Source: a virus | Lineage: Duplodnaviria; Caudoviricetes | Virus record (IMG/VR): IMGVR_UViG_3300018481_000008 | Location: 1 to 57,437 of that record | Direction: 5' to 3' (one strand) | DNA length: 57,437 nt | Part shown: in pieces, positions 239-57,437 of the stretch | Position numbering within the stretch: the first letter of the stretch is position 1 | Layout of the letters: every line of letters begins with the position of its first letter | The notes under the pieces: model-generated | Database searches by the model: none | The model's input: the letters and a program-made list of their open reading frames with translations, nothing else | Told to the model about the DNA's origin: nothing | Program-made: the position numbers and the translations under genes

Positions 239-355
239 ATAGTTGAAGAGACTACACTAGTTTCATTAACTCCCTTCCCCGTAGCCCAAGCCGGGAGTTA
301 ATGTATCCTCACCGGCTAGTGTAGTCTCTTGAACTATGTAAGGATGCATAGTTCA
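239..355 (+). ncRNA. Long-stem-closed structured element plus overlapping linker hairpin
   Basis: atagttgaagagactacactagt (239-261) pairs with gctagtgtagtctcttgaactat (315-337); inner stem cattaactccc/gggagttaatg; alternative hairpin tgaactatg-taaggatg-catagttca (330-355). Confidence 0.5.
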
Positions 356-382
356 GTAGGGAATCCTAGATAGGAGAGACAT

Positions 383-1489
383 ATGGTGAGGAAGATCATT
401 CTCACACTAGTCTCGGTCGGCATTGTAGGTACATTTGCCGTTACCGCGACTAGCGCACCAACAGCAACACAGGATCAGGGGCGTAGGCTTGCTGGTCCTT
501 TCTGTATTGGTAAGAAGTTTCTTCGTCCTCTAACAAGGTCAGAAGAGAACCGCATTAAACAGGCTGAGAACATGAATGATGTTCGTCTTGGTCTTGCGGT
601 ACTTCGTGCAGGTGCAGTAAGGTCTGTTGCTAAGGGTGATAAGTGTCGTCCTTGGGAGAACCTTAAGCCAGGTGTAGCTGTTGCAGGTACACCCGGTCCT
701 AGGGGTCTTAAGGGTGAAGCAGGAGCAAGAGGTCCAGCCGGTGCTAATGGTGCCCAGGGTGCTAAGGGTGATACTGGTAGCGCAGGTGCAGTAGGAGCTA
801 CCGGAGCTACTGGCGCTACGGGTGCAACTGGTTCAACTGGAGCTACTGGCGCTACGGGTGCTAAGGGTGATACCGGAGCTACAGGTGCCCAGGGTGAGCA
901 GGGTCTTATGGGACTTACTGGCGCTCAGGGTATTCAGGGTGAACAGGGTGAACAGGGAATCCAGGGCATGATTGGTGCTACTGGTCCTATGGGTCCACAG
1001 GGGCTACAGGGTGTTCAGGGACTTATTGGTCCTCCCGGTGCTGATGGTGCTAAGGGTGAGACTGGTGCTACCGGCGCTCAGGGTCCAATTGGACCTGTTG
1101 GACCTGTTGGCCCAAAGGGCGATGATGGTGATGTTGGCCCTGCTGGTCCAAAGGGTGATACTGGTGATACCGGGCCTATTGGTCCTACAGGAGCTACGGG
1201 TGCTATTGGTCCTGCTGGTCCTACTGGTCCCGCTGGTCCAAAAGGTGATACCGGAGATATCGGTTCACTAGAGACTGTTATTGGTGGTACTGCTAGTGGA
1301 GATAAGCAGTTCACCGTTACGTGTCCTGCTGGTAAGCAGGCTATCTCTGGTGGGTTCGATATTCAGGGTAGTGTAACTGCTTCGTTTAGAAGTGATGCTA
1401 CTGGTGATCCAACTGGTACTAACGCTTGGACTATTATTCAGAGTTCAGGTGCCGATCTATCAGGCGTGGTATACGTCTACTGCGCGTAG
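383..1489 (+). CDS. Secreted collagen-like protein
   Basis: Signal-peptide-like N-terminus (MVRK, hydrophobic core, ATSA); long run of Gly-X-Y triplets; C-terminal beta domain with CPAGK...SGGF...YVYCA; RBS aggaga. Confidence 0.9.
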   Translation: MVRKIILTLVSVGIVGTFAVTATSAPTATQDQGRRLAGPFCIGKKFLRPLTRSEENRIKQAENMNDVRLGLAVLRAGAVRSVAKGDKCRPWENLKPGVAVAGTPGPRGLKGEAGARGPAGANGAQGAKGDTGSAGAVGATGATGATGATGSTGATGATGAKGDTGATGAQGEQGLMGLTGAQGIQGEQGEQGIQGMIGATGPMGPQGLQGVQGLIGPPGADGAKGETGATGAQGPIGPVGPVGPKGDDGDVGPAGPKGDTGDTGPIGPTGATGAIGPAGPTGPAGPKGDTGDIGSLETVIGGTASGDKQFTVTCPAGKQAISGGFDIQGSVTASFRSDATGDPTGTNAWTIIQSSGADLSGVVYVYCA

Positions 1490-1531
1490 CTAAATGAGAT
1501 AGGGGGTAAAAGCCCTATCTCGTTGAGCTAC
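1486..1531 (+). other. Long hairpin (processing site or terminator)
   Basis: gtagctaaatgagataggg pairs with ccctatctcgttgagctac, one mismatch and one U-G pair. Confidence 0.55.
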
Positions 1532-1553
1532 GTAACTACTAACAAGGACTACC

Positions 1554-17743: not shown

Positions 17744-18526
17744 CTAGGGTGTTACATCGAAGTGCAAGTAACAGTTGATAGAACGATAGTTATGCGGATA
17801 GTGCCCCATAGGATAACCTCCCATCGAGTACACATGCATACCGCTATCACCTTCCCAACCTGCTACGTGAGTAGGACTACCTCTAGAGAACGCAGGGGAA
17901 TTAAAAGCGGTGAAACCATACATCACCATATCTCCTGGTTCCATATCTAGACGCCTACACTTTATGCCTCCGGCCATTAGCGTACCTGTGTACCCTAGAC
18001 CGTTGTAGGACATTCGTGATCCACCGACAACATTAGGATTCTTCGCATTAGCAGCGTCGTATCCTAGGATCATGGTGCCGGAACAGTCAATAGCTCTAGG
18101 TACTCGAAAGTCCATATCTACTCCATGCATAAATGGTCTGGACTGTGAGTAGCGAATAGAGCCTCTGCTTGCGTACATGCGTCGCCATGCAGCTACGATG
18201 TTCCCACGAATAACATCTTCTGGCGATACGTGATAACGTTCGTATTCAGCCTCCATGATCTTTACTGCGACAGGATCAAAAGCCATACCGGGCTTGCCCT
18301 TGGCTTTCGTATCCTCTAGATTGTTATGTGCCCTAGGACCATAGCCTGCTGGCTTACGGCCATGCTTCTTGTGCAGCGCATATACGGCATTTCTCATACC
18401 GACGCCATAGACGTTAGTAAAGTTTCCCCATTCCATAAAGCCCGCACGACTTAGTGCGCGTTTCACCGCAATCACGTCCGGCCCTCTCGTGCCAAAGACT
18501 AGACTACGGGGAAGTGGTACTTCCAT
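17744..18526 (-). CDS. Endolysin: PG-binding domain + NlpC/P60 peptidase
   Basis: GTRGPDVIAVKRAL; IDCSG, EPGDMVMYG, THVA. Confidence 0.8.
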   Translation of the reverse strand: MEVPLPRSLVFGTRGPDVIAVKRALSRAGFMEWGNFTNVYGVGMRNAVYALHKKHGRKPAGYGPRAHNNLEDTKAKGKPGMAFDPVAVKIMEAEYERYHVSPEDVIRGNIVAAWRRMYASRGSIRYSQSRPFMHGVDMDFRVPRAIDCSGTMILGYDAANAKNPNVVGGSRMSYNGLGYTGTLMAGGIKCRRLDMEPGDMVMYGFTAFNSPAFSRGSPTHVAGWEGDSGMHVYSMGGYPMGHYPHNYRSINCYLHFDVTP

Positions 18527-39160: not shown

Positions 39161-39675
39161 TATTCAGTAATCCTGACATCTACATCGGTATAAGGCTTAA
39201 CAGGAACTTGCTCAGTAGTAAAAACATAGTCGTTACCCGAACGTGCTGGCTTAAATCGCTTTGAGCATAGTAGTCCCAACAGATCATCCAGTGTACGAGC
39301 GCGCCAGCTAGTTAGATTAGAACCCATTACGGCTGTAATTTCTTGTGTTGTGTATCCTAGTGATTGCAACTTGTTATTGATTTGGTTTCGTTCACCATTG
39401 GTCATGTTCGCAAACGACGATGTTAAATCTACCCATCTGCGTGGAATAGCTATAAAGTTAGGTGCTGCATCAATTGTGCTCAGTAGAGCATTAGATGCAC
39501 GAACCTTAACTACCGCACTGTCTCCTAATACCTCAATTTCTTCCCACGTACCGCCCTCAGCGAAAATCTGCTCACTAAAGTCGTCCATAGCACAGTATCT
39601 ACCGGGACGAATGAGAAAACCGTCTAGAATTAGATCACGGCGCTTGTATGGTGTAATGAACCAACCTAGTGGCAT
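39160..39675 (-). CDS. Hypothetical protein in fibre module
   Basis: TAATG-coupled on both sides. Confidence 0.65.
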   Translation of the reverse strand: MPLGWFITPYKRRDLILDGFLIRPGRYCAMDDFSEQIFAEGGTWEEIEVLGDSAVVKVRASNALLSTIDAAPNFIAIPRRWVDLTSSFANMTNGERNQINNKLQSLGYTTQEITAVMGSNLTSWRARTLDDLLGLLCSKRFKPARSGNDYVFTTEQVPVKPYTDVDVRITE

Positions 39676-42212
39676 TATTTACGTCCTATCACGCCGGCCC
39701 ATCGCTTACTAAGCGAAGCAGCCCATCTATTACCAGCTAGTGCAGCAGAGAAACGCACATTTCCGATCTTGGCTGACCAGTGACTAGTGAAAGTAGCACT
39801 CCAACGTCTATCTCCCATACTACCGGAGAAGCGAGTACCAGCTATCGTACCTGACCAGTGCCTAGATAATGTTCCTACCAGTAATGCATCAAAGTAACTA
39901 ATGAATTCACTTAGTGTACCCGGTGTGATTCTTACGTAGACTAAGCCTTCATCTTCGTTACCAAAGCCAACACGGAATTCATCGGCGCTTACTGTTAAAA
40001 CCACCACAGTTGTGGCGGAATCTATGCTCTGTAGTGTAGAGGTGGAAGATGGAGTGATTACTAGAGGAACAGTGCCGGAATCAACGTAACCAGAAGCAAG
40101 AGTATGATCGTCAACGCCACTAGGCTGCAAATCATAGTAAATGGTGTTGGAGTCTGAAACCTCTCTACTCTCAGTACCATTCGGAGTAAGCGTAACCGGG
40201 ATCGTAGACGCATCAGTTACTTCTCTCTGTTCAGTACCGCTTGGAGTAACGTCAACGTAGATTGTAGCGGCATCCGAAACTTCTCTAGTATCAGTAGAGC
40301 TAGGAGTGATCGTTAGAGTTGCGGTTGCGCTATCAGTGCTTTCCCGTAGATCAGTTGCGGAAGGGGTAAGAACAAAGTTGATGGTGCCTGCGTCCGTAAA
40401 GCCACTAGCACTAGTGTGGTCATCTACCCCACTAGGCGTGATTGAATAGGCAATGGTCGCGGCGTCGGTAGATTCCCGAGCTTCGGTACTAGAAGGCGTT
40501 AGTGCAAGCGTAATTGTTGCTGCGTCAGTAGTCTCTCTAAATTCGATACCGCTAGGAGTGATACTAAGAGGGACTGTTGCGGTATCAACTGTGCTAAGTA
40601 GATCAGTTCCACTCGCGTTGAGGTCAACGTATACTGTTCCTGAGTCACTGATTTCCCTGATTTCGGTTGCGGATGGAGTTAGTACGACATTTACGGTAGC
40701 TGCATCAACTCTCTCCGCAACATCAGTAGAGCTAACTGTAAGAGCAAGGCTGACAGTAGTAGCATCTGTGCTTTCACGTGCTTCCACTCCACTTGGCTGT
40801 AGGTCAACATAGATGGTTCCGCTATCTGTAAGTTCTCTGCCATGTACTTCAACTCCACTCGGAGTTAGAACAACCGTAACTGTGTTAGCATCAGTTGACT
40901 CTCTAGCTTCCGTTGCTGAAAGCGTAATAGTAAGTCGTACTGTGTTTGTGTCAACATAATCTGCGGCATCCGTGGAGGAAGGTTGAATGTCGAGATAAGC
41001 TGTAGCTGCATCAGTGGATTCTCGATTTTCTGTAGATGAGAGTTGAAGGTCAACATAGATGGTATTAGCGTCTGTAATCTCGCGGAACTCAGTTGCGCTG
41101 GCCGTTAGAACGAGTGGAACTGTATTGCTATCGACACCTTCAAAGACTTCAACACTACTAGGTGTGATATCTACATAAATGGTTCCTGAGTCGGTAAACT
41201 CAGTACCACCACCAGTAGGTGCTTCATCGGGAAGATTAAGCCGTAACTGGTCAATTTCAAAGGTAGCGGTTGAACCGTCCGCACAATATCCATACCATCT
41301 AATCTCTAGGTCAGAGTAATCCGTAATGAGTTCAGCATTGGCATCAGCAATTGGTATGTCGTAATCTACTAATGTGCCCGATAACAGTCCACTCGCACGA
41401 TTACCCGATCGGTTGTTAGCGCCCTCATAAAGAGCAATGATGAGTTCTCCTGCTCCACCTGTTACTCTAGCCCTAAGCTTAAATGAATGCGCTATTTGAG
41501 CAGCAGGTGTTGAAGGGTGCGCTGCGAGACTCATACGCCCTACTGATGTTTGCTTAGGAACAACAGGATGAATAACAAGCGTATTTGCGCGCCAACCACG
41601 TGAAGCGTTCTGTGTAAACGTACCGGGATTTTCTGATGAGGTAGCACTAACTTGTCGTGCTGCTGCACCAAGACCACCGGATAGGTTAGTACCGCCTGTA
41701 CCGCCTGTCTTTTCTACCTGACCACTCGTATAGTTAGATGGGAAGGTGGTAACAAGTACGTCGGTGTCTGCTACTTCTACAGCACCAGTCATAGAGAAAA
41801 AGGCTAATGCTAGAATATCCTTTGGTCCACCCGTTACTGCTCTAGACGGTGGATCAGGTGTAGTAGACGTTCCAGTAGCGGTAGTGCCAATTTCAGGAGT
41901 GATTGATTTATCGGCTCCTGTAATCCGATAGGCACACCATACTGAACGAGAGGCTACTGACTGAACAAACGTCGGATTAGAGGGAACGCCGGTTCCTGTA
42001 TAGCGAATAACCGCTAACCCGGAAGCTACTGCTTCATCTAGAATCTCAGTCCAGTTAGCTAACGCATTGATAGTACAGGAGACAGAACCTTTAGCAATGA
42101 TGACGATGTACTCATCGGTTGCTGCACCACCACCCGGTAGTGTAACTGCTAGGTTAGTACCGTTAGCAGTAAGACCACCTTCGACTACGGCAGCTACAGC
42201 AGGAGAAGCCAC
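39675..42212 (-). CDS. Repeat-rich fibre protein 1 (two N-terminal domains, ~21 x 20-aa repeats)
   Basis: Same repeat and C-terminus as 37472-39160. Confidence 0.65.
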   Translation of the reverse strand: MASPAVAAVVEGGLTANGTNLAVTLPGGGAATDEYIVIIAKGSVSCTINALANWTEILDEAVASGLAVIRYTGTGVPSNPTFVQSVASRSVWCAYRITGADKSITPEIGTTATGTSTTPDPPSRAVTGGPKDILALAFFSMTGAVEVADTDVLVTTFPSNYTSGQVEKTGGTGGTNLSGGLGAAARQVSATSSENPGTFTQNASRGWRANTLVIHPVVPKQTSVGRMSLAAHPSTPAAQIAHSFKLRARVTGGAGELIIALYEGANNRSGNRASGLLSGTLVDYDIPIADANAELITDYSDLEIRWYGYCADGSTATFEIDQLRLNLPDEAPTGGGTEFTDSGTIYVDITPSSVEVFEGVDSNTVPLVLTASATEFREITDANTIYVDLQLSSTENRESTDAATAYLDIQPSSTDAADYVDTNTVRLTITLSATEARESTDANTVTVVLTPSGVEVHGRELTDSGTIYVDLQPSGVEARESTDATTVSLALTVSSTDVAERVDAATVNVVLTPSATEIREISDSGTVYVDLNASGTDLLSTVDTATVPLSITPSGIEFRETTDAATITLALTPSSTEARESTDAATIAYSITPSGVDDHTSASGFTDAGTINFVLTPSATDLRESTDSATATLTITPSSTDTREVSDAATIYVDVTPSGTEQREVTDASTIPVTLTPNGTESREVSDSNTIYYDLQPSGVDDHTLASGYVDSGTVPLVITPSSTSTLQSIDSATTVVVLTVSADEFRVGFGNEDEGLVYVRITPGTLSEFISYFDALLVGTLSRHWSGTIAGTRFSGSMGDRRWSATFTSHWSAKIGNVRFSAALAGNRWAASLSKRWAGVIGRK

Positions 42213-44567: not shown

Positions 44568-44938
44568 TACCCGTTTTTCTCATTCATACTAGCTAGGAGT
44601 GCTTCTAGTGGATCGCCGACTAGAGCGCCAATCTCCTTACCAACGGCCTTATCAATGATGTACTGAGCAGCCCTAAGACGATTAGACTCGTTGGCACCAT
44701 GTTGAGCGATATGAAGCATAACTGCTACTGCTTTAGGAACAGCACCAGTTAGTAGTTCTTTCGTCTTTTCTCTAATCTGGACGGGAGTTAACTTTCCATC
44801 TGTGTACTGTTGATTCGTTTCCCACTCTTCCTGCATAGCCTGATGGTAGCCCTTAAGTGTTTCCTGTAGAGCACGTTCGTTAGCTTCCTTATCAGGCCCG
44901 TTAGGAGTAGGGTCAACTGTGAACTCGTCATTGTCCAT
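44567..44938 (-). CDS. Putative terminase small subunit
   Basis: First late gene; helical, RLRAAQYIIDKAVGK; RBS ggagg. Confidence 0.5.
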   Translation of the reverse strand: MDNDEFTVDPTPNGPDKEANERALQETLKGYHQAMQEEWETNQQYTDGKLTPVQIREKTKELLTGAVPKAVAVMLHIAQHGANESNRLRAAQYIIDKAVGKEIGALVGDPLEALLASMNEKNG

Positions 44939-45055
44939 TTAGTACGTACCTCCCTTCTGCAAATTGGAGTGTATATGATGGTGAGGTATGGTGCTACAAG
45001 TCACTACTACATAGTAACAATACGCACAAGTCCATTTGGAGCATTGGAGATACTT

Positions 45056-45744
45056 GGGGCTGATCGCCACTTCGCTACGCTCGCCGTATGTAGAGTCCCT
45101 CCCACGCCAAAGGAACCACGTGGGAACAGGGGTGCTGCTCCTCTCTCACAAAACAGAGGCTACGCGCAGGGTAGGGCGTAGGGCGAGACTTGGAAGCGAA
45201 GGATTGCGCGCAAGGGCTAGCAGTAGACAGCGCGGGTCTGGAAGCGGCACGTTCGAGAGGATGCCGTCGAGTCAGGGTAGAGCACCTATCCGGTAGTGAT
45301 TGCGCCTCACGCCTCTACGGGTGAGAACGCGCGGCGAGCAGTAGGGACTACTCAAACCCCTAGCCGCGCAACGCTAGCTACTGAACGCGCACGAAGGGAC
45401 GTAGCGCCGGTTTACGGCTCACGCGGTCTAGAGTGTACGAAGCATGGTAGCGGGACGGCTCACGCCTAACCCGCCACTAGCCGAGTACCGCATACATAGA
45501 CGCCCATACAGGGACGGTGAGAGTAAGACGGTAGCGCTGACAAAGAACGTGCGTAGAGCGTAGACCCCTTGCAAGGTCTACGCTAAGTCTTGGCAGGGTA
45601 CGCGCTACCGTAGGCGTACCTTGCACTAGGCCGTAGGGCAGAGAACAGGGACATACCGCAGGGCACACTAGCCACATACCCGCTAGACCCCTAGCAACCC
45701 GCCCGTAAGGGCTATCCCGTACCCTCTACGGCCTAGTGCAGGGT
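45056..45744 (+). other. GC-rich, highly structured non-coding region at the late/early divergence (possible packaging start and/or ncRNA)
   Basis: No credible ORF; nested inverted repeats including a 21-bp stem 45618-45638/45724-45744. Confidence 0.5.
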
Positions 45745-45768
45745 TTCCTGCTACGGAAGGGACACACA

Positions 45769-45978
45769 ATGGCACGCGCAACACTAAGCAATAAGGGTGA
45801 ACGCGCATTGCGGAAGTACCGCGGCGCCGATCGTAGCGTTACGCTAGGCGGTGTGATTAACCCGCCGACGAAGAATGCAGCCAAGTCTGCATTCAGGGCG
45901 CAGAAACCGCGTCTAGCTACGAATACGCCAGTGAAGGGTACAGGGCACGTTGTAAAGGTTCCAGGGATCTACGGCTAG
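45769..45978 (+). CDS. Small basic early protein
   Basis: RBS gaaggga; K/R-rich. Confidence 0.55.
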   Translation: MARATLSNKGERALRKYRGADRSVTLGGVINPPTKNAAKSAFRAQKPRLATNTPVKGTGHVVKVPGIYG

Positions 45979-46210
45979 GTTCGTAGAAAGCAGGGCTAGT
46001 TAAGTCCCCACTCGGCTAGCCCTGCTTTATGCAAACCGCCACAGGGAAGGATGCTATGTACGAAGTGATTATTCGCCGGAAACACTGGCATGGTAATTGG
46101 CGCATCATTGACCGCGCCGAATTCCCTATCGGTCAGTGGAAAGAGATTGGCTACTGGCTGGACGATTGTGGGTATATCGAAACCGATACGAAAGTCGAGG
46201 TTACTGTCAA

Positions 46211-46402
46211 GTGAGAACAGCACTAGCACTAGCGGTGTTCTTCCTTGCATTCGGCATTGCCGGGTGCATGGATAAGCAAGATGCCGAACGAGCGGAGAAA
46301 GTAACGGAAGATATGCTATTTTGGGATTGCACGAGTAGCGGCAACTTCAAGTGTGGCGAACCAATCACCAATTACCCTGTTCCAGGGGCACTGACGCCAT
46401 AA
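46211..46402 (+). CDS. Putative lipoprotein
   Basis: GTG start; RTALALAVFFLAFG-IAGC lipobox. Confidence 0.6.
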   Translation: MRTALALAVFFLAFGIAGCMDKQDAERAEKVTEDMLFWDCTSSGNFKCGEPITNYPVPGALTP

Positions 46403-46410
46403 TCGGATTC

Positions 46411-46603
46411 TATCCTACTGAGTAACAGTCGGGAAGTGTGCAAATCGAACGTATGTTTTCTACCACTGCCCCTAGTAGCACACTGTTACTCAGTAGGATA
46501 CAATCGGACTGACGTAAGTATCAATCTATCCTACTAAGTAACTATGTGTGACTTACTACTAGGGAATACATACACAAATAGCACACTGTTACTCAATAGG
46601 GGA
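46411..46603. repeat. Tandem pair of related inverted-repeat units
   Basis: Perfect 19-bp IR 46411-46429/46482-46500; degenerate second copy 46525-46603; tagcacactgttactca repeated. Confidence 0.8.
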
Positions 46604-46805
46604 GAATGTGCCTACGTAACTCCTTGCTTGTATCGAATTTGCCCCTTTTGCCCATATCTAAATTCCGGGAGGTGTTCTGCTTACGGAAACTCTAGAGCAA
46701 TACAAAGCACGTACCGCACCATTGATTCAATCGTTTCACGATTCAAGTACGGCAATGCAAGCTAGCGCAATAAAGCGCGAACGTCTATACAAGGAGCTAA
46801 GGAAA

Positions 46806-47123
46806 ATGTTTGATAGCAATAGTTTTATCGTTCTTGACGCCGATGAGGCGCAGGAGGTTCTTGATTCAGCGTCCATGAAGGGTATCTACAAGGATATGCT
46901 CAATAGCCTTACCACGGCTTATGAGGCATGGCGCGCAGAGAATCCCGAGGGTAGGTTCGTGGTTCCGATCACTGGCGATGGTACGGCATTCGGTGGAAAG
47001 AATACCGATACCGTTTACCAGGGAGTCACTAACGCTCTTAAGGCCGATGCCTTTAAGGGTGAGTGGCGGCTCATCCGTAAGACGAAGGATGAGGTTACTA
47101 CCATCCTGATCGCTAAGCTCTAA
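46806..47123 (+). CDS. Hypothetical protein, paralog of 56765-57058
   Basis: RBS aagga; shared G.YK, VP(I/L)T, F.GK...TV..G..NA. Confidence 0.7.
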   Translation: MFDSNSFIVLDADEAQEVLDSASMKGIYKDMLNSLTTAYEAWRAENPEGRFVVPITGDGTAFGGKNTDTVYQGVTNALKADAFKGEWRLIRKTKDEVTTILIAKL

Positions 47124-47129
47124 GCAACA

Positions 47130-47310
47130 ACTAGCCCTGTAAGCTAGGGGCTAGTGAAGTACCGGGAAGAGACTAACGTAACCTTCGATCCCAATTCACT
47201 CCACTAAGACTTCTCTATCTTAGTGCCCGGAAGGTAGCCCACTATTATATTATCAGGGCGAGAGTGTTAACGGCGGGATTACGTTAGCCCGGTACTTCAC
47301 TAACCCCTAG
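47130..47310 (+). ncRNA. Long-stem-closed multibranch structured element
   Basis: ctaggggctagtgaagtaccggg pairs with cccggtacttcactaacccctag; inner stems; overlapping upstream hairpin actagccc/gggctagt. Confidence 0.55.
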
Positions 47311-47429
47311 TGAAAGGAGAAATAAATGAGGGTGAAGGATAAGAACGGCATCATCTTTCACGTTTCGGACGTTAACCGCGAATGGATCATTAAGATGATC
47401 CTGAGCCAGACTAGATTGGTGGTCTGGCC

Positions 47430-48257
47430 GTGACACTAGAAACTCTAGATCGTGCCATTAAGGATCTTGAAAGTGAAATCCGATACGGCATTGAGCATCC
47501 TTACGCAGGATACTGCGGCGAGGATGATGCTAGGCAAGATAGATTGGATTCGCTAAAGCTTGAAAGAGAATACCATCTAAGGAGTGTGGCAAATGAATTG
47601 CGGAACTTGGACTTGGGGTAAGCCTACGAATCAGCTTTCGATTCAGATGCCCGACGTAGTTAGCATCAAAAAGGAACTTTCGGAAATGATTACGGGTAAC
47701 TTTAGCGTTAGCTATTCGATTCGGTTTATCGTAGCTAAGCATTCGCTACGTAACTTCCGGCATCGTGGTAACGCATGGATTGATGATATCTGCATCGTCC
47801 ACGCTCAACTCTAAGGAGGAATGATGCTAAAGAAGGAAGTAAGGGTTGGAGCGCACTATGCTATTCGGCATCATGGTGACCGTAATCTAAGTGTGGTTCG
47901 GATTGATTCCGAATCACGTTTCGGAGGATACAACGCTACGAAGCTTAAGACGAATCGAAGTATCCGTATCAAGTCCGCAGCGAAGTTGAGGTTTGAAGTT
48001 GAGCGCAACCCTGACAACCAAAAGTGGAGGGAGGTTAAGTAATGCATACCATCGGAAATGAGACTACTGAGTTTGTGAACATTCGGGATCTAATCATGGA
48101 TTCCGTCCGAGCACTTTGTAGGTACGGCATTCTTCCTGAGAATGCAAGCAAGGAGATTGTAGTGCAGGAAGTTTGTGAGTCAACCGGATTGCCCTTGTCA
48201 AACAACTCGATCGGTGCTAGTATTGCCTACGGTGCATACGAACACTATCAGCACTAA
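47430..48257 (+). CDS. Cluster of small early hypothetical ORFs (47430-47621, 47821-48042, 48042-48257 and others)
   Basis: RBSs and stop/start coupling. Confidence 0.55.
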
Positions 48258-48389
48258 GGAGATATAGCTATGAAGATTCGGATGGGAGTCGGAGTCTGGA
48301 ACGTTACTGCAATTTGGTTTGGTGCTGAGCGCGTGGTTTACTCTCATCCTGATATCTTCGCTTGTTTCAAGTGGGTTAGGGATAACGAG

Positions 48390-49380
48390 TAAGTAAGTTC
48401 GTCTTAGGAGTCATATCGGGACACTTGGGCAATGGGCCAAGTCACGAACTTTGAGTCGGACTGTAGTAGCCTAAGAATCTACAGTCTGCATCTTAGAGGG
48501 AATGTAGAATCCGGAGGGAAATACGCTGTATTCAGGTAGGAGCTTACAGCATGGTTGGTATGGTTAATAAGCGGGGAGACTTCCCTCAGTGAAAGGCAAT
48601 TAGGTTAGCGGTACAAGCCTACCAAGGTAGTTGGCCCGGTTCTAACTGAAAGCATACTCACTGGTATAGTCGGCCTCTCCCCGCTCATTAACTCTATTGA
48701 CTATAGAGTTAGGTAGGACAAGATAAGGTAAATGTAATGACCATGCCCCGGAAGCATAAGGGTATATGCGCCCGAAAGCATTGTGACTAGTCATCACTAG
48801 TAAGTCTTTCCACTAACTAGACTGGTTAGTGTACCGTGTGTAGGGAGATAGCGGGTTTGAATCCCGTCCGGGGCTGCTTATCTTAGCAAGTAACGAGGCG
48901 TCGTTCCACGCCTACCTACCAAAGAAGTAGTGTTAATGAGATACAAAGGTTGCCTGTTGCTAGGTATCCGTGAGAGGTTGACTGTCCCCAGGCCGACGGG
49001 CTATGCCACAGTCTGTTCTACTCTCAATGCCAATCGGAGCATCTTTGTATCTCATTAACTCTACTAAGGTAGAGTTAGTAAGGCAGTAGGTTTGCCTCTG
49101 ATAGTGTAAGACCTAGAATGGAGGAAGTTCGCAACTTGCGTCCATATAAGGCTACAGCAGAGGGTAAAACTAAGAACACGATACCGTAGGTAGGCGTGAG
49201 TCTTAGGGTGATCTAGGATGCCTAGGATACTTCCTAGTGAGCTAACGATACCAAGAAGGATCGCTAGGATAAACAATTCCAACAGTGACCTACTGATCTA
49301 TTGTTAGGGTGATGTTGGTATTGCGAGGTCGGTGTTCGTGCCTTGCCTAGCCAAACTTACTGTCTTACTAACTTTACTAA
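48390..49380 (+). ncRNA. Candidate ~1 kb structured ncRNA or array of structured RNAs
   Basis: ORF-free; four tandem stem-closed units, G-U pairs, palindromic linkers, embedded tRNA-like element. Confidence 0.65.
48745..48875 (+). tRNA. tRNA-like element with ~70-nt expanded anticodon arm (no assignable anticodon, no encoded CCA)
   Basis: Acceptor GCCCCGG/CCGGGGC; D arm GCATA-AGGGTA-TATGC; T arm GCGGG-TTTGAAT-CCCGT. Confidence 0.6.
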
Positions 49381-49391
49381 GGAAAGGAGGA

Positions 49392-49680
49392 ATGATGATC
49401 GGTACTAAGGTTGTAGCAACAGTGCCATACACTACTCGTCAGAAACACGGCGAGGTAATCGCTATGAAGGATGGTTTGGCTGTCATCAAGTGGAACGGCT
49501 GTCATCATACGCAGATGGTCATTCCTCGTTTCCTGCACCGATTGGAGGTTCGTAATGACTAGGCTCGATCAGCTTAAGGATAATCCCGGCGTGATTAGCA
49601 TTACGATCTATCCGGGTCTTGCAAAGGGTTACAACAGGAATCTTCCTACTAAGCTTCCTGCGGCGGTGAAGGTTAAGTGA
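49392..49680 (+). CDS. Two small early hypothetical ORFs
   Basis: RBS aaggagg before ATG 49392; coupled ORFs. Confidence 0.5.
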
Positions 49681-50171
49681 ACTTCACTCCGCTAGATGAG
49701 AATGATCCGATTGCTCAGGAACTTAGCAGGGAAGATGAAATCACCCAAGTCGCTAAGATGTTCATGTACCACGAGGGACTCGACGATTGGAAGTTTGAGC
49801 TATCGAATGGTATTAACACTGTGGGATGGTGTGACTATCGCAGTAAGACCATTTCATATTCCAAGCGATACCTTCATGTAGGATGGAATGAGATTGAGGA
49901 TACCATTCTGCATGAGATTGCTCACGCTCTAGTTGGGCCAGACGTTAAGAGTCATGGCTACGAATGGAAAGCTATGGCACGTAAGGTAGGAGCACGTCCT
50001 GAAAGATGTGCTCCACCTAACGTTAGGCCAATTGAGCCTCCTAAGATGTTCTACTTTGAGTGTCCCGATTGTAAGCAGCGATGGTATCGGCACAGAATTA
50101 AGTCTAACATGATCGGTAGACTTTCTAGATGCTGCCGTAAGCCACTAAAAGCTTACAAGGAGAAGAAATGA
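49677..50171 (+). CDS. SprT-like zinc metalloprotease
   Basis: G.C.Y..K.I, TILHEIAHAL, HGYEWK..A..VGA.P, CPDC. Confidence 0.85.
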   Translation: MNFTPLDENDPIAQELSREDEITQVAKMFMYHEGLDDWKFELSNGINTVGWCDYRSKTISYSKRYLHVGWNEIEDTILHEIAHALVGPDVKSHGYEWKAMARKVGARPERCAPPNVRPIEPPKMFYFECPDCKQRWYRHRIKSNMIGRLSRCCRKPLKAYKEKK

Positions 50172-53100
50172 ACACACTTGTTCTAACGGATGATGAGTAC
50201 GCCCACGTTCTAGCTTGTTTGGGCAGAGTAGATGATCCATATACTTTTCCCAATAGCATGGAATTCTATGCTAGACTTCATCGTAGTGCCAATGCTAAGG
50301 TTCTTGAACGGTTTGAGCCTTACTACGACAATATGACGTTTAGCCCTTCCCGGATGGAAAAGATTAGGAGGAATCGTGCGAAATCGCTATACGATTCAAA
50401 GCATTGAAGAAAAGATTAATGAGCATCCGCCGCCTAGTGAGGATTACGATATTGCCTACGATGTTCATATCCCCACCTGTGGGGACGTTGAAGATGCATA
50501 TGCCGCGCTTAAATCGAACTATTGGGATAGTCTGGATATTAGGGCAGATGAGGTAATCTGCTATCCTGCTGACAGTAACATTGACTATCGTACCGGGGAG
50601 CGCAGTAGAACGCAGATCATCATTAAGGGTAAGGAAAACGCTATCGAGCATCTAATGGACTACTACTTTCGTAAGGAGGATGGAAAGCGTGGTATTTCAC
50701 ATTCTACTAAAGGATCGTAATAGCGAGAATCGTCGTACTGTCGAAGTGAGAACGTGTGAGAGTTTTAAAGAGGCAGAGACTAAGCTGCTTCATGATGAGC
50801 GTTACCACTTTGATCCTAAGTTTGAGGAAATGATTGCGATTGTGAAAGATGACTACGTGGTATGAAGGATTACGTAGTCATCACTGAGATTGCAGTTCAG
50901 GTCTATGCAGTAGATGAGAAGGATGCAATTAAGCAAGTGTCCCGCTCAACTACGAATTGGGACGATTGGAACATTACCTCAGCTACCCCACAGGTTAAGG
51001 AGGGTGATCTTAATGACCATGCTAACTAAGCCAGATGAGATTGAGGCATTTAGACTACTCAGCATTAAGGGTAGGCTGTCTCTAGAGCTTAAAGGACTGC
51101 GGTTTAGGATCAATACGTTCGCTGCTGTCAAGCGCGAGTTTGGATTCAAGGGTAATAATCAGAAGGTGTACGATCAGTACATCGCTATGCTTAAGGAAAG
51201 GGGCATTCTTGCCGATACTGAAAATTGAGATTGATTCGGACAATGCAGCATTCGGCACAGTAAGTGATTTCGCTGAGTGTGTTGAAGCAGTAGCAAGGAG
51301 AATCCGTGATGGAGAAACGAGTCATGGAATCTATGATTCCAATGGAAACTACGTCGGTCAATACTACATTACCGGAGTGGAGAGTTTCGCAGATTCAGAG
51401 TCTTTGGAAAACTAGAGCCGATTCATTCTCCCGTCATCAGCTTAGAGTAATCATCAAGATGGAGCAAGCAAAACGAGCGGAGGCTTGGTAATGTATAGCA
51501 TTGCAGGCATCATCAATGGTAAGAATTCGGAGGATGCAGTTACAGTACATCGTACTGCTTCTCATCCTGAGCAGATGTTCAAGATTCTAGAGGCACTTAC
51601 AACTTTGGGTGCTGTCAGTATTTCGGTGGTGAGGAACTAATGTGGGAAGTTACGGGAGTAGATGTTAATGGTAAGCGATTCAAGATCGTAACAAATAACT
51701 ATCTCTACGCTAAAGGAATCAATCTCTATCGTGGTTCAGTTTGGCAAAGGTATTCGGACGGTACTCGTCGTCTACTTTGGAGGGTATGGAACTAATGTAC
51801 GCAAGAAACATAACTGAGCGCAATCTCAAAGACATTGCACACTCGCTAAAGTTTGAAGTAGAGTGTGATAAGCGCGGTAACAAGATCAAGTTCAAGTTGC
51901 GTAACAACTCTGGACGGTACTGGAAGATTAGTCGTAACCTTTGGGGTAATGATAGGGTTCGTTCCGATCTAGTATGCTATCACGGTGTTTATGCCTTTCT
52001 CCATGTTCTATTCGATATCTTTCCTGATGCAATCGTAGAGGCATCGTGGTACGGTTACGTTAAGTACACAAAGGATACCTATATTGAGTTGGCCGATGCA
52101 ATTGGCGATAGAGTGATTCGTCAGTACGATCAGCTTACTCCTAGAGATCAGTGTAACTGCGAAGATCAGGATTGGTACAACTTGGAAAGGAGTTGTTAGA
52201 ATGAAGCTTCAAAAAGGTGACGAGGTTAAGTTCTTCCATCCCGGCATGATGGGAGTGATTAAGGAGGGTACGGTCGAAAAGATTGGCAGCAAGTATATCT
52301 ATGTCAATTGGATGGAATCCACTGTTAAGATTCGTCCTAGTGATTTGGTAGTGATCTGATGAACTTCTCAGAACTGCTGATGTTTCTTGCAATGCACTAC
52401 AGACTTAGTGCTCAGAAGGATGATCCACAGGTGATGTTTTACGATACAAACGGGCATCGTTACATCTTCACAGACACAGTGTATACCGATGACGATATTC
52501 TGTGTTTTGATATGGAAAGGGTCACGGCATGAGTTTGCCTAACATCACTAAGATCGACATTAACTGGAATCATGGTTGGGCAAATGCCCCACAGGTTGAG
52601 ATTACAGTTGATGGTAAGATGCCCGAGCCTAGTGAATGGATCTATCAGGCTACTACGGATTGGGAAAACGATCCTACGATGCTGATTAGTAGGAACTTTG
52701 ATCCCTGGGTGAGATTCGTCTATATTTCTAAGCGCGATGGTCAGGCACAATTTGATGGTGCGCTAGGTGGGGATTATCGCTTGACAAATGGCGAGGTACT
52801 TAAGAGCAGAACGGGATGGTCTAGTCGTGCTAGCGTAATCAACGTTAAATACTCCACATTCATTCCCGATGATATTCTAGAGCCTACGCTCATCATTCCA
52901 TCTAAGTATGGGGCAATGAAATGGGCAGGATACGCAGTCACGGCTAAGTACATTCGTGAGCATGAGTTGTGGCCCAAGGATATCTACCTAGTGATTGATA
53001 ACCGTCGTAATGATGAGGTTCACTACGCACCCTCCATTGATCCTACGGAAGTGAGGAAGCCGAATGGTTGATAAAGAGCGCATGGAGGAAATGCTCCTAG

Positions 53101-53814
53101 AAGCAGACTACTGGAAACAGATGATCGCTCTAGGTACAGAGATTAATGAGGCACTGGATAAGATGAATCAGATTTTGCCAGACTGTGTTACCAATCCGCA
53201 ACTGATCCTAACTGCACAGGAGCACCTAATTGATTCACTTAAGCCGCTGGAAACGATGATGGGGATTATCGCCGGCCGGGGTAGATACCTGAAAGGAATC
53301 ATCAATGACAGTAACGTGTGAGGATTATCCCTGTTGTGGTCATGAATGGGGAGATTGTGATGGTAGCAAGTACGGTAGTGATGAGGACATTAAGCAGGCT
53401 GTCTACGATCGGATGCGTGATGGTGATGATGACCACCCGCAGGATGGAGAAGAGTAATGTGTAGCGTTGACGAAGAGTGGAGTCACTACTGTAAGCATGG
53501 TTACTATCACGGACGAGATTGTCCCGACTGTGATACTTCGCACCCTGTGGGGGTTTTTATTGAAAACAACGATCCGGGAGACGAGACAGATGCAGAGGAT
53601 TGAACTGAACATTGATACCTACGACAAGCACTACGGACGTATGGATCTTGCTCCAAGGGTTCTAGGATTGGAAGCATTCGAAGGAAATACAGGCTATCTA
53701 CTCGCATACCTCCCAGAAACTGCGGTTTTCGTGATTCAGTGGGATGGAGCACTTGGAGAGGTTACGGACGTTAGGGTGGAGGAATTCAAAGTAATCGCAG
53801 GAGTGACGTTCTAA
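50168..53814 (+). CDS. Run of small early hypothetical ORFs (e.g. 50376-50720, 51741-52199, 52529-53071, 53064-53321)
   Basis: Tightly packed + strand ORFs; no recognisable motifs. Confidence 0.55.
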
Positions 53815-53899
53815 TGCCAACCATTAGTCGTATGGGATTCATCGAATTTAGCCTTGGAGCATTTTGGGGTCATTTCTTCATTGACCTGCTCTTTTAGGG

Positions 53900-53928
53900 T
53901 TGACAACTAGGAAAGAGTGTGATAGAAT
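53900..53928 (+). promoter_or_regulatory. sigma70/sigmaA-type promoter
   Basis: TTGACA-17 bp-TAGAAT with TGn. Confidence 0.75.
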
Positions 53929-53955
53929 CTCGCTACCTACTGATCGGAGGATTGT

Positions 53956-56268
53956 GTGGAGACTTGGCTTATCGGTGTTACCGTAGGCTCAGGTGTAGTC
54001 TTTCAGGGTGATAGAGAACAGGCACAGGAACACCTGAATGCCTACGTTGCTCATCTTGAAGGGATTTTCAAGGAGAATGGTCTAGCTTTCGTTCGTAAGG
54101 AACATACCATTCGTCAAAAAGGGGTAGCTGTTGCCGAGGATGAGTCCATTGACGTTAATGCATCTACAAACGGCACAGGACTCCTTAGCGATTGATATAG
54201 AGAAAAGCGATCCTGAAAGTTTAGAGCGCGTACAGCTATCGGTTGATCTGGAAATTCTAAAAGAGATTGTTAGGAGAAATAGTGATTGACACTATCGACA
54301 CGGCAGAAATTGACGTAGATAGTATTGATGCCGATGGAGAGATTCCACAGCGTACCATCGTCACACTGCACTTGCATGGTGACTTTCAACTTACCGCAGA
54401 ATGCTATCTAGGCATTGATGGTCCCGATGGTAGTGGTAAAGAAGGTAAAGCATTGGTGTTCCAGTTGCACGACGATGTTGCTAAGGAACTTCACACCCAA
54501 CTAACGAGGTTGCTGTATGGCTAAGGGAGCACGTAATCGTAAGATTCGTAAGGATGCGCTGCTAGTTAAGGAAGGTGGCGATCCTCGTCCGATTAAGTCC
54601 ATTGCACGTTGGCTACGGAGGAATAAGAATGTTCGTATTGCGTAAGAGTTTCGGTGCATACAGCGCAGGAACTAGAATTACAAGTCAGTACGAGCCAGGT
54701 CGTGAGTTTCTTGGTATTGATGGGATTAAGATTCCAGCCGAGCTAATCGTACAGCGCCGTAATATGACTGTGATGCGTCCTAACGTTCTTAACAGTCGTG
54801 AGCGTCGTGCAATCAAGCGTAGTGAACGTAAGAGACTGTTGGAGGTACAGAATGCCAATCAGTAAGCAGGGTAGCGGATACTTTCTTCCACTACCGCCTA
54901 ATAAGGCAATTGAGAATTATGAGTTCCAGCACGCTCATAAGGCTGCTATGGGTGCATTCACTGATAAAGCGCGTGATGCACTTGCTAAGGCAGTTGAGAA
55001 GAACAAGCCCACAGTGGTTATGGATGATCGTACAATGGACATTAAGTATTACGAAGAGTATGTCCATGTTAGCGCACAGCGCGTAGGACTTCCGTGTGGT
55101 AACTTCGACCGCAAGGTACTTGCTAGCCGATTGGAGCCTAGTCTATGAACGCACAGAGCATTTGGGCTGGTGAAGAGTATGCCTATATGGAGTACAAGCC
55201 TAAGAGTCGCTTTGTAACCAATGCAAAGCGTATTCGGGCTACGAAGGTTGAAAAGAAAGTAGAGTGGGGTAAGGAGCGCGCAACAGCTTTTGTAGTTGGT
55301 GATCGGCTTAACGATGATGGAGAAGTCATTGTTTCAAACATCACCATTCGTGTAAGAGATTGTATCGACTTCTGGGATAGCTACGTTGCAGAGCGTGAGT
55401 CACTTGAAACAGAGCGCCAGCAGCGAGCTAGAGAAGCAGAGGCAGAGCGCGAAAGGTGGCGTCAAGAGCGCGAAGAGAGAATTCGTCTAGAACAGGAAGC
55501 TAGGGAGGCAAAGCAGCGTCAGGATGCAGAACGCCGTGAGAAGCTGATTAAGGCGTTTGTTGAGCGTACTAGCATTCCAGAGGTTGCTATTGCTCAGATC
55601 AGTGAGACTCATGTTACGCTAGATCGCGTTAGTCTGGAATTGTGGCTGAGTGTTAATGGTAACAATTGACAGGAACACAACTGGCGCAATGTGGATTCGT
55701 GCAATCTTCCGTTACTACTGCAAGTTGTACGATTGCACAGTAATTAAGGTTAGCGAATCCACATACGCTGCCGAGGGTGAAGAGGAAAATAGAAAGGAAG
55801 CAGAGTTTCACTACGAGCGAGCAATGGCTACTTTGCTCATCCAGATCATTAACGCCAGAGCTAAAAGTCCTAAGCGTCCTAGTAAGACTGTGACGCTTGA
55901 AGTCATACGACGCTTTACAAAGGAGCTATGGAGTGTTTAAGGAAGTCGATGCCGGTTTGGAAAGTTCAATCCTAGCAAGTAGTGAACGAAAGAAAAGAGG
56001 TCCAGACTTTTCTATCCGTACTGTTGTACATTGGCTTACACTTCCGCACAAGCTTAGTTTCTGTTCTGTGCCTAGTCACTATGACAATGTTCCCGATACT
56101 GATATGAATGGACAACCATATGACAAGTACCCTACTCGTCTTTGCATTGAGCTTGATGAGTTTATGGTCTGTCGCTGGTGTTTTATTGCTTCTGCTGATA
56201 TTGCAGCACATGAAGCGGGTTTGAAGCCTGTTCCAGCCGGAGAGGATGCTAATGCCAGCAGTAAGTAA
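53956..56268 (+). CDS. Run of hypothetical ORFs (53956-54195, 54267-54524, 54852-55148, 55145-55669 coiled-coil, 55650-55940, 55897-56268)
   Basis: Coupled + strand ORFs downstream of the promoter. Confidence 0.55.
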
Positions 56269-56695
56269 TGAAACTCTTTTGCGTTACTGTCATCAGTTGT
56301 ATGACATTCTTGCAAAAGATGCTAAACGTAAGAAGATTGACGGCAAGTTCGTACAGCTATGGGAAGGTAAGATCGTAGAGACTTTCAGTGGAAGTGGAGT
56401 TAGCAATGCTTTCTATGGTAAGGTGCTGAATACTCTCTATGAAACTGGCTCTCTTATGCTTGTGCGGCGTGGAGCGCGCGGGACGCCTACACAAATCATT
56501 GTGCTGCGTCGTCCAGAGGCAGAGGATTTGGAGCGCGTACACGGACTCACAGGGCACTTGACAAGTCCGAGCGCGTATGATACGCTCTCGCAGAGAGTAA
56601 GCACACTGGAAAGGAGGTTCGACGGCATAGACGTAGCAAAACTCATTGCCTCGCACGAAGCTAGGATTAGAGAGCTAGAGGCTAAGGGAAGTTAA
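56246..56695 (+). CDS. Hypothetical protein, possible winged helix + coiled coil
   Basis: VSNAFYGKVLNTLYETGSL..VRRG; C-terminal heptads. Confidence 0.5.
   Translation: MLMPAVSNETLLRYCHQLYDILAKDAKRKKIDGKFVQLWEGKIVETFSGSGVSNAFYGKVLNTLYETGSLMLVRRGARGTPTQIIVLRRPEAEDLERVHGLTGHLTSPSAYDTLSQRVSTLERRFDGIDVAKLIASHEARIRELEAKGS
56558..56586 (+). promoter_or_regulatory. Intragenic sigma70/sigmaA-type promoter
   Basis: TTGACA-17 bp-TACGCT with TGn, upstream of the 56765 gene. Confidence 0.55.
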
Positions 56696-56764
56696 GGAGA
56701 GCGCATGGCACGTCCTAGAAGTAACAAGACAAACGAAAGCACTACAATTAAGGAGAATACTGTT

Positions 56765-57058
56765 ATGTCCGATATGTTTACCCCGATTGAGGATACCGAC
56801 CTTCTCGCCGATATCCTTTCAGGAGCGCGTGGTCGTGGTGACTACAAGACCGTGATTAAGGCATTCATTGATTCCGGTTATCGTCTTGTTGAGGTTCCTC
56901 TCACTTCCGGTCTGTTTGAGGGTAAGAAGGCTCAGACGGTTAAGACTGGTTTTGAGAATGCCAAGAACGCTAAGGAGCCGGCTGAGGGTTCTGACAAGGT
57001 TAAGGTCGTTAAGAAGGGCGATCAGATTTACCTCGTCAATCAGGCAGTTTCGGCGTAG
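56765..57058 (+). CDS. Hypothetical protein, paralog of 46806-47123 (alternative start 56705)
   Basis: RBS aaggag; shared motifs with paralog. Confidence 0.7.
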   Translation: MSDMFTPIEDTDLLADILSGARGRGDYKTVIKAFIDSGYRLVEVPLTSGLFEGKKAQTVKTGFENAKNAKEPAEGSDKVKVVKKGDQIYLVNQAVSA

Positions 57059-57062
57059 GGTA

Positions 57063-57130
57063 GTTAGTATCGGGGGGTTAGTAGCCCCCCATACTAAACC
57101 TCCCTACAACTCGAAGGGAGGTTTAGTATG
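57063..57130 (+). other. Two overlapping, mutually exclusive hairpins
   Basis: ttagtat-c-gggggg/cccccc-atactaa, then ccatactaaacctccct/agggaggtttagtatgg. Confidence 0.55.
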
Positions 57131-57314
57131 GAACGGTACTGTCCATATTGTGAGTTTTCTACTCTAGAGTATTCAGTAGCGCATAACTGCTTCTACTGTC
57201 TAGAGTGTGAGTTCGTGTGTGTAGTGCCTAGGGGCGACCATACTAGAGGTATAAGGTATGGCGTCAAGACTACAAGGCTACCATCAAGACGAACGCTAGG
57301 CAGGGTAGTCATTT

Positions 57315-57437
57315 AAAGGGAGGGAAGTAGCACTTTCAGTGGGCGCTACTTCCCTCCAACTAAATATGGAAGGAGCCACATCAAACGTAGCGGCGGTAAC
57401 TTCCAGAGGTAGAGGACTAAGCTACGCATGATCCTCT
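57315..57437. repeat. Terminal direct repeat, copy 2
   Basis: Identical to 1-123. Confidence 0.95.

Follow-up and report, generated by a model that had tools for sequence, protein, structure and literature searches.

The early region of an uncultured phage of the Caudoviricetes (IMG/VR record IMGVR_UViG_3300018481_000008) contains a set of long hairpins in which a sequence-conserved stem base carries a top of variable length and unrelated sequence. These stems are tentatively regarded, with a probability of roughly 45%, as plus-strand RNA hairpins that punctuate polycistronic early transcripts and are cut by a host nuclease of the RNase III type. The whole 57,437-bp stretch, referred to here as the window, is a complete siphophage record with a 123-bp terminal repeat (1-123 = 57315-57437), which could be either a physical genome end or an assembly overlap. 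Genes for the tape-measure protein, portal, protease and terminase occupy the minus strand from 17.7 to 45 kb, and genes for helicase, exonuclease, primase and DNA polymerase I are found on the plus strand. The rightward early/replication block extends from near 45.6 kb, across the junction of the two ends, to ~17 kb.

The number of stems was compared with chance by a strand-symmetric scan (8-nt seed, single mismatches tolerated, at least 15 Watson-Crick pairs, loops of 3-220 nt), for which 100 dinucleotide shuffles of the window served as the null. Fifteen stems with at least 15 Watson-Crick pairs were detected against a shuffle mean of 1.43 and a maximum of 6; 11 enclose at least 40 nt (mean 1.2 in the shuffles) and eight reach at least 18 Watson-Crick pairs (mean 0.2). 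A sequence-only reading of this DNA had described long stems with overlapping linkers at several places, suggested a palindrome scan as a check and considered them genome-wide. Each of these places holds the described stem and the scan bears out the excess, but the distribution is narrower than proposed, since 12 of the 15 stems fall in just two clusters of the early region, at 45.6-49.6 kb and from 57.06 kb across the junction to 1.55 kb. The other three are located at 2840-2928 (inside an open reading frame, ORF), 9085-9221 and 18066-18262. Fold z-scores amount to -6.8 for 47120-47330, -4.4 for 45560-45770 and -6.4 for 1-382. The word CATTAACTC, already recognized at 264, 48686 and 49053, has a fourth copy at 295 on the minus strand, so that four copies stand against 0.49 expected, a count reached by none of the 100 shuffles. 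Under a strict rule, the 36 stems in the early regions of five phages have a median length of 20 bp (range 16-29; 17-27 bp, and mostly 19-27 bp, if G.U pairs are allowed). The set mixes simple hairpins (45978, 1484 and 57089 in the window) with cargo-bearing stems, and structured non-coding RNA takes up more than 2 kb of the phage.

Conserved stem bases in related phages

The phage has no cultured close relative, and its DNA polymerase shares at most 30% identity with that of any deposited phage. No match was returned by a DNA search of the phage collection with the window or by tblastn of the A1 protein (encoded at 56705-57058) against phages, and no relative was found by a profile scan of genome contigs with the A1 protein alignment or by close-relative scans with ORF 49677-50171 and ORF 46806-47123. 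A search of sequencing runs listed no RNA run holding the stretch and four DNA runs carrying small shares of it. Relatives were retrieved by means of the polymerase and the small protein adjoining the junction cluster. They comprise G001, a collinear 57.7-kb IMG/VR phage with 72% polymerase identity to the window; L023, a second IMG/VR fragment that is identical to part of G001; and four related metagenome loci (L025, L026, L027 and L028). Full synteny of the window and G001 was evident from protein comparison, and the same scan recovered the same hairpin architecture at syntenic places in four related phages. While coding DNA of the window aligns with that of its relatives at 71-84%, the hairpin regions do not align at all; what is kept between phages is the hairpin design together with the stem bases.

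The conserved stem base comprises the first 7-16 bp and falls into at least two sequence classes, in agreement with the earlier expectation of motifs shared beyond chance. Class A has the consensus TAG-Y-U-[purine.G mismatch]-A / U-[G]-AGCUA, with 5' arms starting (C)GTAG-Y-T-R-A and 3' arms ending T-N-G-AGCTAC(G). It is represented by 239-337 and 1484-1533 in the window, by units starting at 3743, 3972 and 5124 in L025 and at 11079 and 11358 in L026, and by G001 27538. Across these eight units from four phages, pairs 1-3, 5 and 7 do not vary, seven units have a purine.G mismatch at position 6 (G.G in six, A.G in one), and positions 8-21 are always paired, with two to five pair types per column. 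The A.G case is hairpin 1484-1533, whose conserved base reads GTAGCTA-A.G mismatch-.../...TTGAGCTAC and whose homologue in L026 (11358-11461) carries a 58-nt top. Class B has the consensus AGUAGGGUUAGUGAAG / CUUCACUAACCCUACU and arms of the form AGTAGGGTTAGTGAAG... and ...CTTCACTAACCCTACT, beyond which the distal parts are unrelated yet complementary. Its members in the window are 47143-47311 (stem GCTAGGGGCTAGTGAAG.../...CTTCACTAACCCCTAGT), 48926-49065 and 49069-49377, together with the variant 48562-48693, to which a stem within L026 3159-3249 is homologous. Relatives contribute G001 18247, L026 3027, 3159 and 3255, and L027 1048 and 1151, and a pattern scan of IMG/VR for both class B arms returned G001 only.

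Pairing is maintained while sequence changes. RNAalifold, applied to two sets of three sequences each, detected compensatory double changes at 5 of 20 pairs in one set and at 7 of 28 pairs in the other, which covers 57063-57131 across three phages. A second symmetric element, CAAG opposite CAAG, is located above the lower stem in class A units of L025, L026 and G001. Stems in flipped orientation were found at G001 16253, at G001 26885 and as the inner hairpin 264-303 of the window unit 239-337.

Since the arms within a class have one sequence in common, a 3' arm near the next 5' arm forms a short linker hairpin, in which the end of one unit's 3' arm pairs with the start of the following 5' arm. 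This design is seen at 49057-49076, 48690-48715 and 325-360. The TAAG that had been placed in the loops of such linkers is present (e.g. in 49057-49076), but it is better described as the gap between the adjoining 3' and 5' arms. Pairings over longer distances are also available: the 3' arm of 48562-48693 can pair over 13 nt with the 5' arm of 48926-49065, enclosing a tRNA-like element, and the outer arms of three tandem units in L026 are able to pair across 292 nt. In the window, G001, L026 and L027, a short repeat of the end of the 3' arm stands ahead of the class B units and is able to pair with the first bases of their 5' arm. All of these linker and competing pairings are far weaker than the long stems.

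Strand, placement and small RNAs

Two measures point to the plus-strand RNA as the folded molecule. Among the 36 stems, G.U outnumbers A.C by 27 to 10 (binomial p 0.008), although the bias is partly inherited among homologous units and the plus strand is G-rich, so that it is weaker than the p value indicates. The plus strand folds more stably in 21 of 31 units, with a mean difference of -3.2 kcal/mol (Wilcoxon p 0.013), a test that is likewise weakened by shared ancestry and by the G-rich plus strand. The distal stems, which are complementary while unrelated in sequence from copy to copy, provide the stronger argument for a folded single strand.

The stems differ from simple terminators, the alternative against which the sequence-only reading had set its proposal: no plus-strand terminator-like site was found in 44800-50000 or 1-2300, no U-tract follows the stems and the inspected flanks hold no T runs. 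An intrinsic terminator was rejected as a candidate identity for want of the U-tract. Promoter-like sites are not in excess either (7 against 5.9 expected, and 1 against 2.0 expected). All five class B units that precede an ORF end 0-8 nt before its Shine-Dalgarno sequence (47311 and 49377 in the window, G001 18374, L026 3357 and L027 1275); in the window, the units ending at 45746, 46037 and 1533 stop 9-12 nt before it, and the unit ending at 337 stops 33 nt before it. The early observation that several stems end just before a ribosome-binding site (RBS) can thus be extended to most of them, within 0-33 nt.

The features of the window are collected in Table 1. The core of the first unit (45618-45744) consists of 21 bp, 19 Watson-Crick and two G.U; a small hairpin at ~45598-45621 overlaps its 5' arm from upstream, and the unit ends 9 nt before the RBS of ORF 45769-45978. 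Unit 47143-47311 starts 20 nt past the stop of 46806-47123 and ends 3 nt before the RBS of ORF 47326-47433, and the short hairpin in front of it competes for the start of its 5' arm. The third class B unit, 49069-49377, escaped the sequence-only reading and ends right before the RBS of ORF 49392-49562. At the other cluster, the 19-bp hairpin 57089-57131 contains the RBS and ATG of the conserved zinc-ribbon ORF 57128-57316. The top of unit 239-337 holds an inner 11-bp hairpin carrying CATTAACTC; its 3' arm is overlapped by the junction hairpin 325-360, and the whole lies upstream of the collagen-like ORF 383-1489.

Table 1. Hairpin units, tRNA-like element and paralogous genes of the early region of the window
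Feature	Coordinates	Strand	Description
First long-stem unit past the late/early strand switch	45616..45746	+	21-23 bp, 2-3 G.U, 85-nt branched top
Simple hairpin	45978..46037	+	22 bp, 16-nt loop; between ORF 45769-45978 and the RBS of ORF 46056-46214
105-aa small protein gene	46806..47123	+	Paralog of 56705-57058
Class B unit with preceding short hairpin	47130..47311	+	Stem 47143-47311, 23-24 bp, 121-nt top, z -6.8
Main-array unit (class B variant)	48562..48693	+	17-18 bp stem GGTTAATAAGCGGGGAGA / TCTCCCCGCTCATTAACT, 96-nt top
tRNA-like cloverleaf	48745..48875	+	Between two units; see text
Class B unit	48926..49065	+	25-bp stem AGTAGTGTTAATGAGATACAAAGGT / ATCTTTGTATCTCATTAACTCTACT, 90-nt top
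Junction ('linker') hairpin	49057..49076	+	AACTCTAC-TAAG-GTAGAGTT
Third class B unit	49069..49377	+	26-29 bp, 3 G.U, no A.C, branched ~250-nt top
117-aa small protein gene, 'A1 family'	56705..57058	+	Upstream of the junction stem cluster
G5/C5 hairpin and 19-bp hairpin	57063..57131	+	Directly after the stop of paralog gene 56705-57058
Class A unit with junction hairpin	239..360	+	Stem 239-337, 24 bp, G.G mismatch at position 6, 51-nt top
Class A hairpin	1484..1533	+	21 bp, 8-nt loop; overlaps the stop of collagen-like ORF 383-1489

The same stem base may enclose anything from an 8-nt loop to ~250 nt. These tops are unrelated to each other and cannot be aligned even between the closest relatives, which makes them the least conserved part of the units, and the conserved stem is probably the functional part. 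The structured cargo proposed from the sequence alone is not supported: the recognisable small RNAs, a transfer-messenger RNA (tmRNA) and tRNA-like elements, sit between hairpins and not inside them. The tmRNA of G001 (L021 10362-10694, minus strand) was called by both ARAGORN and Rfam (85 bits) and is flanked by two class A hairpins, one of which ends 6 nt upstream while the other starts directly past the discriminator base. The tag predicted for it is of unusual length, with LVAV at its end, and CCA is not part of the encoded sequence.

The window was not recognised by the tRNA and tmRNA models of ARAGORN or Rfam: ARAGORN reported 0 genes, and Rfam gave no match at the gathering threshold over the whole window or at E values up to 10 over 45000-50000 and 1-2200, the sub-threshold rows being microRNA-precursor and similar hairpin-favouring models. 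In the minimum-free-energy fold of the 1-kb array, 48745-48875 forms a cloverleaf: its acceptor-like stem measures 7-8 bp, a D-like arm and a T-arm (GCGGG-TTTGAAT-CCCGT) are present, and the central domain is expanded. This cloverleaf remained uncalled by default ARAGORN and by Rfam, and was called by ARAGORN solely at the lowered setting ps80, where many false calls arise; lowered thresholds with introns allowed likewise produced many implausible calls. A similar cloverleaf in G001 (g1rc 26779-26889) was also called at a lowered threshold only. Both possess acceptor, D and T arms and a centre expanded by 30-60 nt, are missed by standard tRNA finders, and are each preceded by TTGAC(A/T)..TAGAGT..AGGTAGGA. 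Among the tops, that of the G001 class B unit 18247-18374 holds a perfect T-arm (CTAGG-TTCGATT-CCTAG), while most others have none.

Several further structures and genes were noted in the window. An 18-bp inverted repeat with a 57-nt spacer (2838-2930) is located inside the beginning of the double-zinc-ribbon ORF 2834-3304, where it joins the region of the ATG to codons ~30 downstream; L025 (5884-5982) keeps it with one pair changed. Pairing over 16-21 bp is likewise available within 49380-49534, between the 3' end of the small ORF 49392-49562 and its own RBS and start. After the DUF669 gene, an 18-bp hairpin at 9349-9388 with three G.U pairs, a 4-nt loop and a TTTT run in its 3' arm, kept in G001 (g1rc 36734-36769), may be a terminator within the replication block. 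A 17-bp hairpin (5-43) lies in the 123-bp terminal repeat and recurs in L025 at 3585-3626. Just after a small lipoprotein gene, the block 46401-46610 contains a word of 24-29 nt (GCACACTGTTACTCAGTAGGATA and its complement) four times in alternating orientation, with a counterpart at the syntenic place in G001 (g1rc 16576-16776); its mismatches are A.C rather than G.U, and in appearance it is closer to an operator or origin region than to an RNA stem. The small ORF 46211-46402 overlaps the preceding stop (GTGA), encodes a lipoprotein-type signal (…LAFGIAGC…) and has counterparts in both G001 and L026; the PHROGs that it matches are of unknown function. In the late region, the minus-strand ORFs 37472-39160 and 39675-42212 encode proteins of 562 and 845 aa without a PHROG match, both of which resemble a single 1029-aa protein of G001; this gene may have been split or duplicated in the window.

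Competing explanations

Stems that are non-random, compensated, G.U-favouring and free of U-tracts, and that end before RBSs, fit an RNA-level signal comparable to the RNase III sites of phage T7. The processing or translational signal that had been proposed from the letters is thus partly supported; its genome-wide extent is not borne out. A stem of about two helical turns, a conserved mismatch in the lower stem, the lack of a U-tract, the intercistronic placement just before RBSs, the tight bracketing of a tmRNA and the indifference to the top together match processing signals for a double-strand-specific endonuclease, with the T7 early signals and the rRNA processing stalks as models. The idealised RNase III substrate of Escherichia coli comprises 22 bp, or two helical turns, and mismatches or internal loops direct single-strand cleavage that leaves 3' hairpins as stability determinants (PMC3867540). 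The median of 20 bp agrees with the largely regular duplex of ~20-22 bp expected of a bacterial RNase III substrate.

According to this reading, the early genes would be transcribed as one RNA, and the conserved lower stem would be the target of a host endonuclease that is specific for double strands and of the RNase III type. The cut would separate neighbouring cistrons and free the small RNAs between hairpins (the tmRNA of G001 and the tRNA-like RNA of the window) with short leaders and trailers; the downstream mRNA would be left starting a few bases before its RBS, and the upstream mRNA would end in a protective half-stem. The shared arms would furthermore let units and intervening genes be gained and lost by recombination.

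A number of observations weigh against processing by RNase III. The conservation of the stem base, purine.G mismatch included, exceeds what RNase III is known to need and better fits a sequence-specific binding protein. If the tops were mere waste, a 57-kb phage would be carrying a surprising burden of 50-250 nt of well-folded RNA per unit. The flipped stems would suit a reader of symmetric duplexes, but they are also expected of a DNA site. In addition to the inherited share of the G.U bias noted above, 10 of the 31 units fold better on the minus strand.

The fit to a binding protein leads to an explanation that is considered rather unlikely, namely that the stems are operators: two paralogous small proteins would each bind one stem class and control downstream translation or coupling, with or without cleavage. 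The products of 46806-47123 and 56705-57058 are paralogs (BLASTP E 0.002, and full-length alignment with their relatives), and both are retained throughout the relatives, with a stem cluster shortly downstream of each gene. The homologue of the first is followed by at least one class B stem in the window, G001, L026 and L027, and the homologue of the second by a zinc-ribbon ORF and then by class A stems in four of the five phages (the window, G001, L025 and L026); the stems that follow it in L027 cannot be placed clearly in class A. A dimeric reader would suit the two-fold symmetric non-canonical elements, both the U-G-A over A-G-U with its G.G mismatch and the CAAG over GAAC of L025, L026 and G001, and the covarying hairpin 57089-57131 buries an RBS and ATG. 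The adjacency may nevertheless be mere inherited synteny in five related genomes, and class B units of the window also occur 1.4-2.2 kb away from the paralog gene. The proteins themselves offer little guidance: no Pfam, PHROG or PDB sequence match was obtained, the AlphaFold model has a mediocre predicted local distance difference test (pLDDT) score of 68.5, Foldseek against the PDB gave nothing at E <=0.001 (best E 0.085, TM <0.36, mostly winged-helix neighbours), and the protein atlas lists hypothetical phage proteins only.

The tops could instead be the products, namely small RNAs (decoys, tRNA mimics or anti-defence RNAs, for instance) that each owe their stability to a long closing stem acting as a scaffold, in the manner of modular Y RNA-like RNAs; this reading is considered quite unlikely. 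The tops are long and well folded, one of them presents the perfect T-arm of the G001 class B unit, the arrays contain a tmRNA and tRNA-like cloverleaves, and the fast turnover of tops within a conserved scaffold is what an arms race would give. On the other hand, tops are unconserved even between the closest relatives, and the same stem base also carries a loop of 8 nt. No Rfam family was matched, YrlA and Y RNA included, and the window lacks a gene for a Ro/TROVE protein (PF05731). Nor does complementarity to the phage's own genome exceed chance: the tops of eight window and five G001 units, searched against their own genomes for antisense targets, yielded only chance-level matches of 10-14 nt.

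Conserved termini around variable interiors also fit elements acting at the DNA level, and the stems could be boundaries of transposable elements of the miniature inverted-repeat type (MITEs) or cassettes of the Correia, promoter-early stem-loop (PeSL) or integron attC kind, existing through their own movement or recombination and with the RNA hairpin as a by-product. Traces of rearrangement are present. An indel of ~200 nt, with a class A 3' arm at either edge, distinguishes L025 from the window, and repeated arms thus coincide with gain and loss of units; the large non-coding arrays are differently placed, at 48.4-49.4 kb in the window and at the place matching the window's junction in G001. 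The collagen-like (Gly-X-Y) gene 383-1489, situated between class A units, is found in the window and L025 and is absent at that place in G001 and L026. Precedents exist: Correia elements, too, are transcribed, and RNase III binds or cuts them (PMC2649163), and PeSLs mediate modular shuffling in T4-like phages (PMC4122927). A boundary function is nonetheless very doubtful. The distal stem always pairs although its sequence differs per copy, a property dispensable to the sites of transposases and recombinases; the stems favour G.U over A.C, interiors are not common to the copies as they are in MITE families, and inspection of the flanks revealed no target-site duplications. The window encodes no tyrosine recombinase (PF00589) and no RNase III; positive controls worked in each of these searches and in that for Ro/TROVE, and those for PF00589 were positive in 14 of 14 genomes. 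An integron attC site was rejected, there being no PF00589 integrase match in the whole phage. Moreover, recombination at repeats may simply follow from the presence of the stems without being what they are for.

Equally doubtful is a composite in which the paralogs read the stem classes (through the G.G mismatch and a tandem A.A loop), the RNA-protein units present or release fast-diversifying top RNAs, some of them tRNA mimics, that act on host translation or defence, and the arms recombine so that cassettes of RNA and of genes are exchanged; if true, this cassette scaffold would be an RNA-level counterpart of the integron in a lytic phage. Highly improbable, finally, are factor-independent terminators or attenuators of a host that dispenses with the U-tract, with the small competing hairpins as anti-terminators: mutually exclusive pairings of an upstream or junction hairpin with the long stem do exist at most units, but U-tracts and plus-strand terminator-like sites are missing from both clusters, stems of 20-29 bp enclosing up to 250 nt are atypical, at least ten of them within one early operon would silence the downstream replication genes, and the long stem is far stabler than its competitor of 7-8 bp.

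Known systems and significance

The favoured reading, processing by an RNase III-type nuclease, has its closest precedent in T7, where five RNase III signals are placed in an early precursor of ~7000 nt (PMC3867540). Both systems feature intercistronic hairpins of about two turns in polycistronic early RNA, with an internal mismatch, without a U-tract, in many cases just before an RBS, and with related sequences recurring in the genome. Here, in contrast, most stems close tops of 50-250 nt, the bases belong to sequence classes with a conserved purine.G mismatch and small RNAs lie between the hairpins.

In rRNA operons, long-range stems around the 16S and 23S rRNA are cut by RNase III, which excises the RNAs from the precursor (cf. 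PMC10250234). The phage units resemble these stalks in that a long-range duplex is formed by sequences flanking the enclosed RNA. The rRNA stalks, however, enclose a conserved product, whereas in the phage the enclosed part is the least conserved one and the known RNAs are found between stems. A long closing stem combined with a tRNA-like module bearing a T-arm is also characteristic of YrlA, to which G001 18247-18374 comes closest; here, the differences are that the units have no Rfam YrlA match, that the window carries no Ro/TROVE gene and that most tops have no T-arm. The sole YrlA match in G001 scored 19.3 bits against a gathering threshold of 69 and fell over the 3' end of the tmRNA.

Among repeated elements of phages, the extended start-associated sequences (ESAS) of Cluster K mycobacteriophages are 17-bp imperfect inverted repeats with spacers of mostly 4-13 bp, tied to a 13-bp start-associated sequence, and are of unknown function (PMC3203893). 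They share with the stems described here the repeated imperfect inverted repeats with a per-genome consensus, located before the starts of unrelated genes and kept across related phages. The present arms are 17-29 bp long, their spacers measure 8-250 nt (mostly 50-250) and only a Shine-Dalgarno sequence follows, which sets them apart. PeSLs are repeated stem-loops at gene boundaries in variable early regions of T4-like phages and coincide with breakpoints of indels and replacements (PMC4122927), in which they are alike. A PeSL, however, consists of a promoter and a terminator, while neither is in excess here and the stems are far longer and bear cargo. Copies of the bacterial Correia elements share their interior and insert with target duplication. 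In the phage, by contrast, interiors are unrelated, no flanking duplication was noticed by inspection and distal stems covary. What connects the two are conserved terminal inverted repeats, found in both class A and class B: Correia elements are Neisseria MITEs of ~100-150 nt with ~26-bp inverted repeats, co-transcribed and hairpin-forming, and their hairpins are bound or cleaved by RNase III (PMC2649163).

The nearest phage features are therefore the T7 RNase III sites, ESAS and PeSL, and the nearest bacterial analogue is the Correia element. None of them combines conserved, class-specific stem bases that bear a purine.G mismatch with tops that vary freely up to 250 nt and with small RNAs in between. 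Literature searches gave no description of the combined features, although a catalogue of candidate structured RNAs from IMG/VR (PMC10690425) may already list some of the motifs.

Almost nothing is known about the organisation of early transcripts in uncultured soil phages. In the phages described here, the non-coding RNA follows one simple rule, that of a long hairpin in which the base is conserved and the top is free to vary. Should the hairpins serve in processing, they would extend the punctuation principle of T7 to embedded small RNAs such as tmRNA and tRNA-like elements, and would supply a well-defined duplex motif, conserved in sequence and bearing a G.G mismatch, for which a reader could be sought. 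Functional tops would constitute a pool of fast-evolving phage RNAs. Either way, the repeated arms explain the shuffling of genes and RNAs in the early region.

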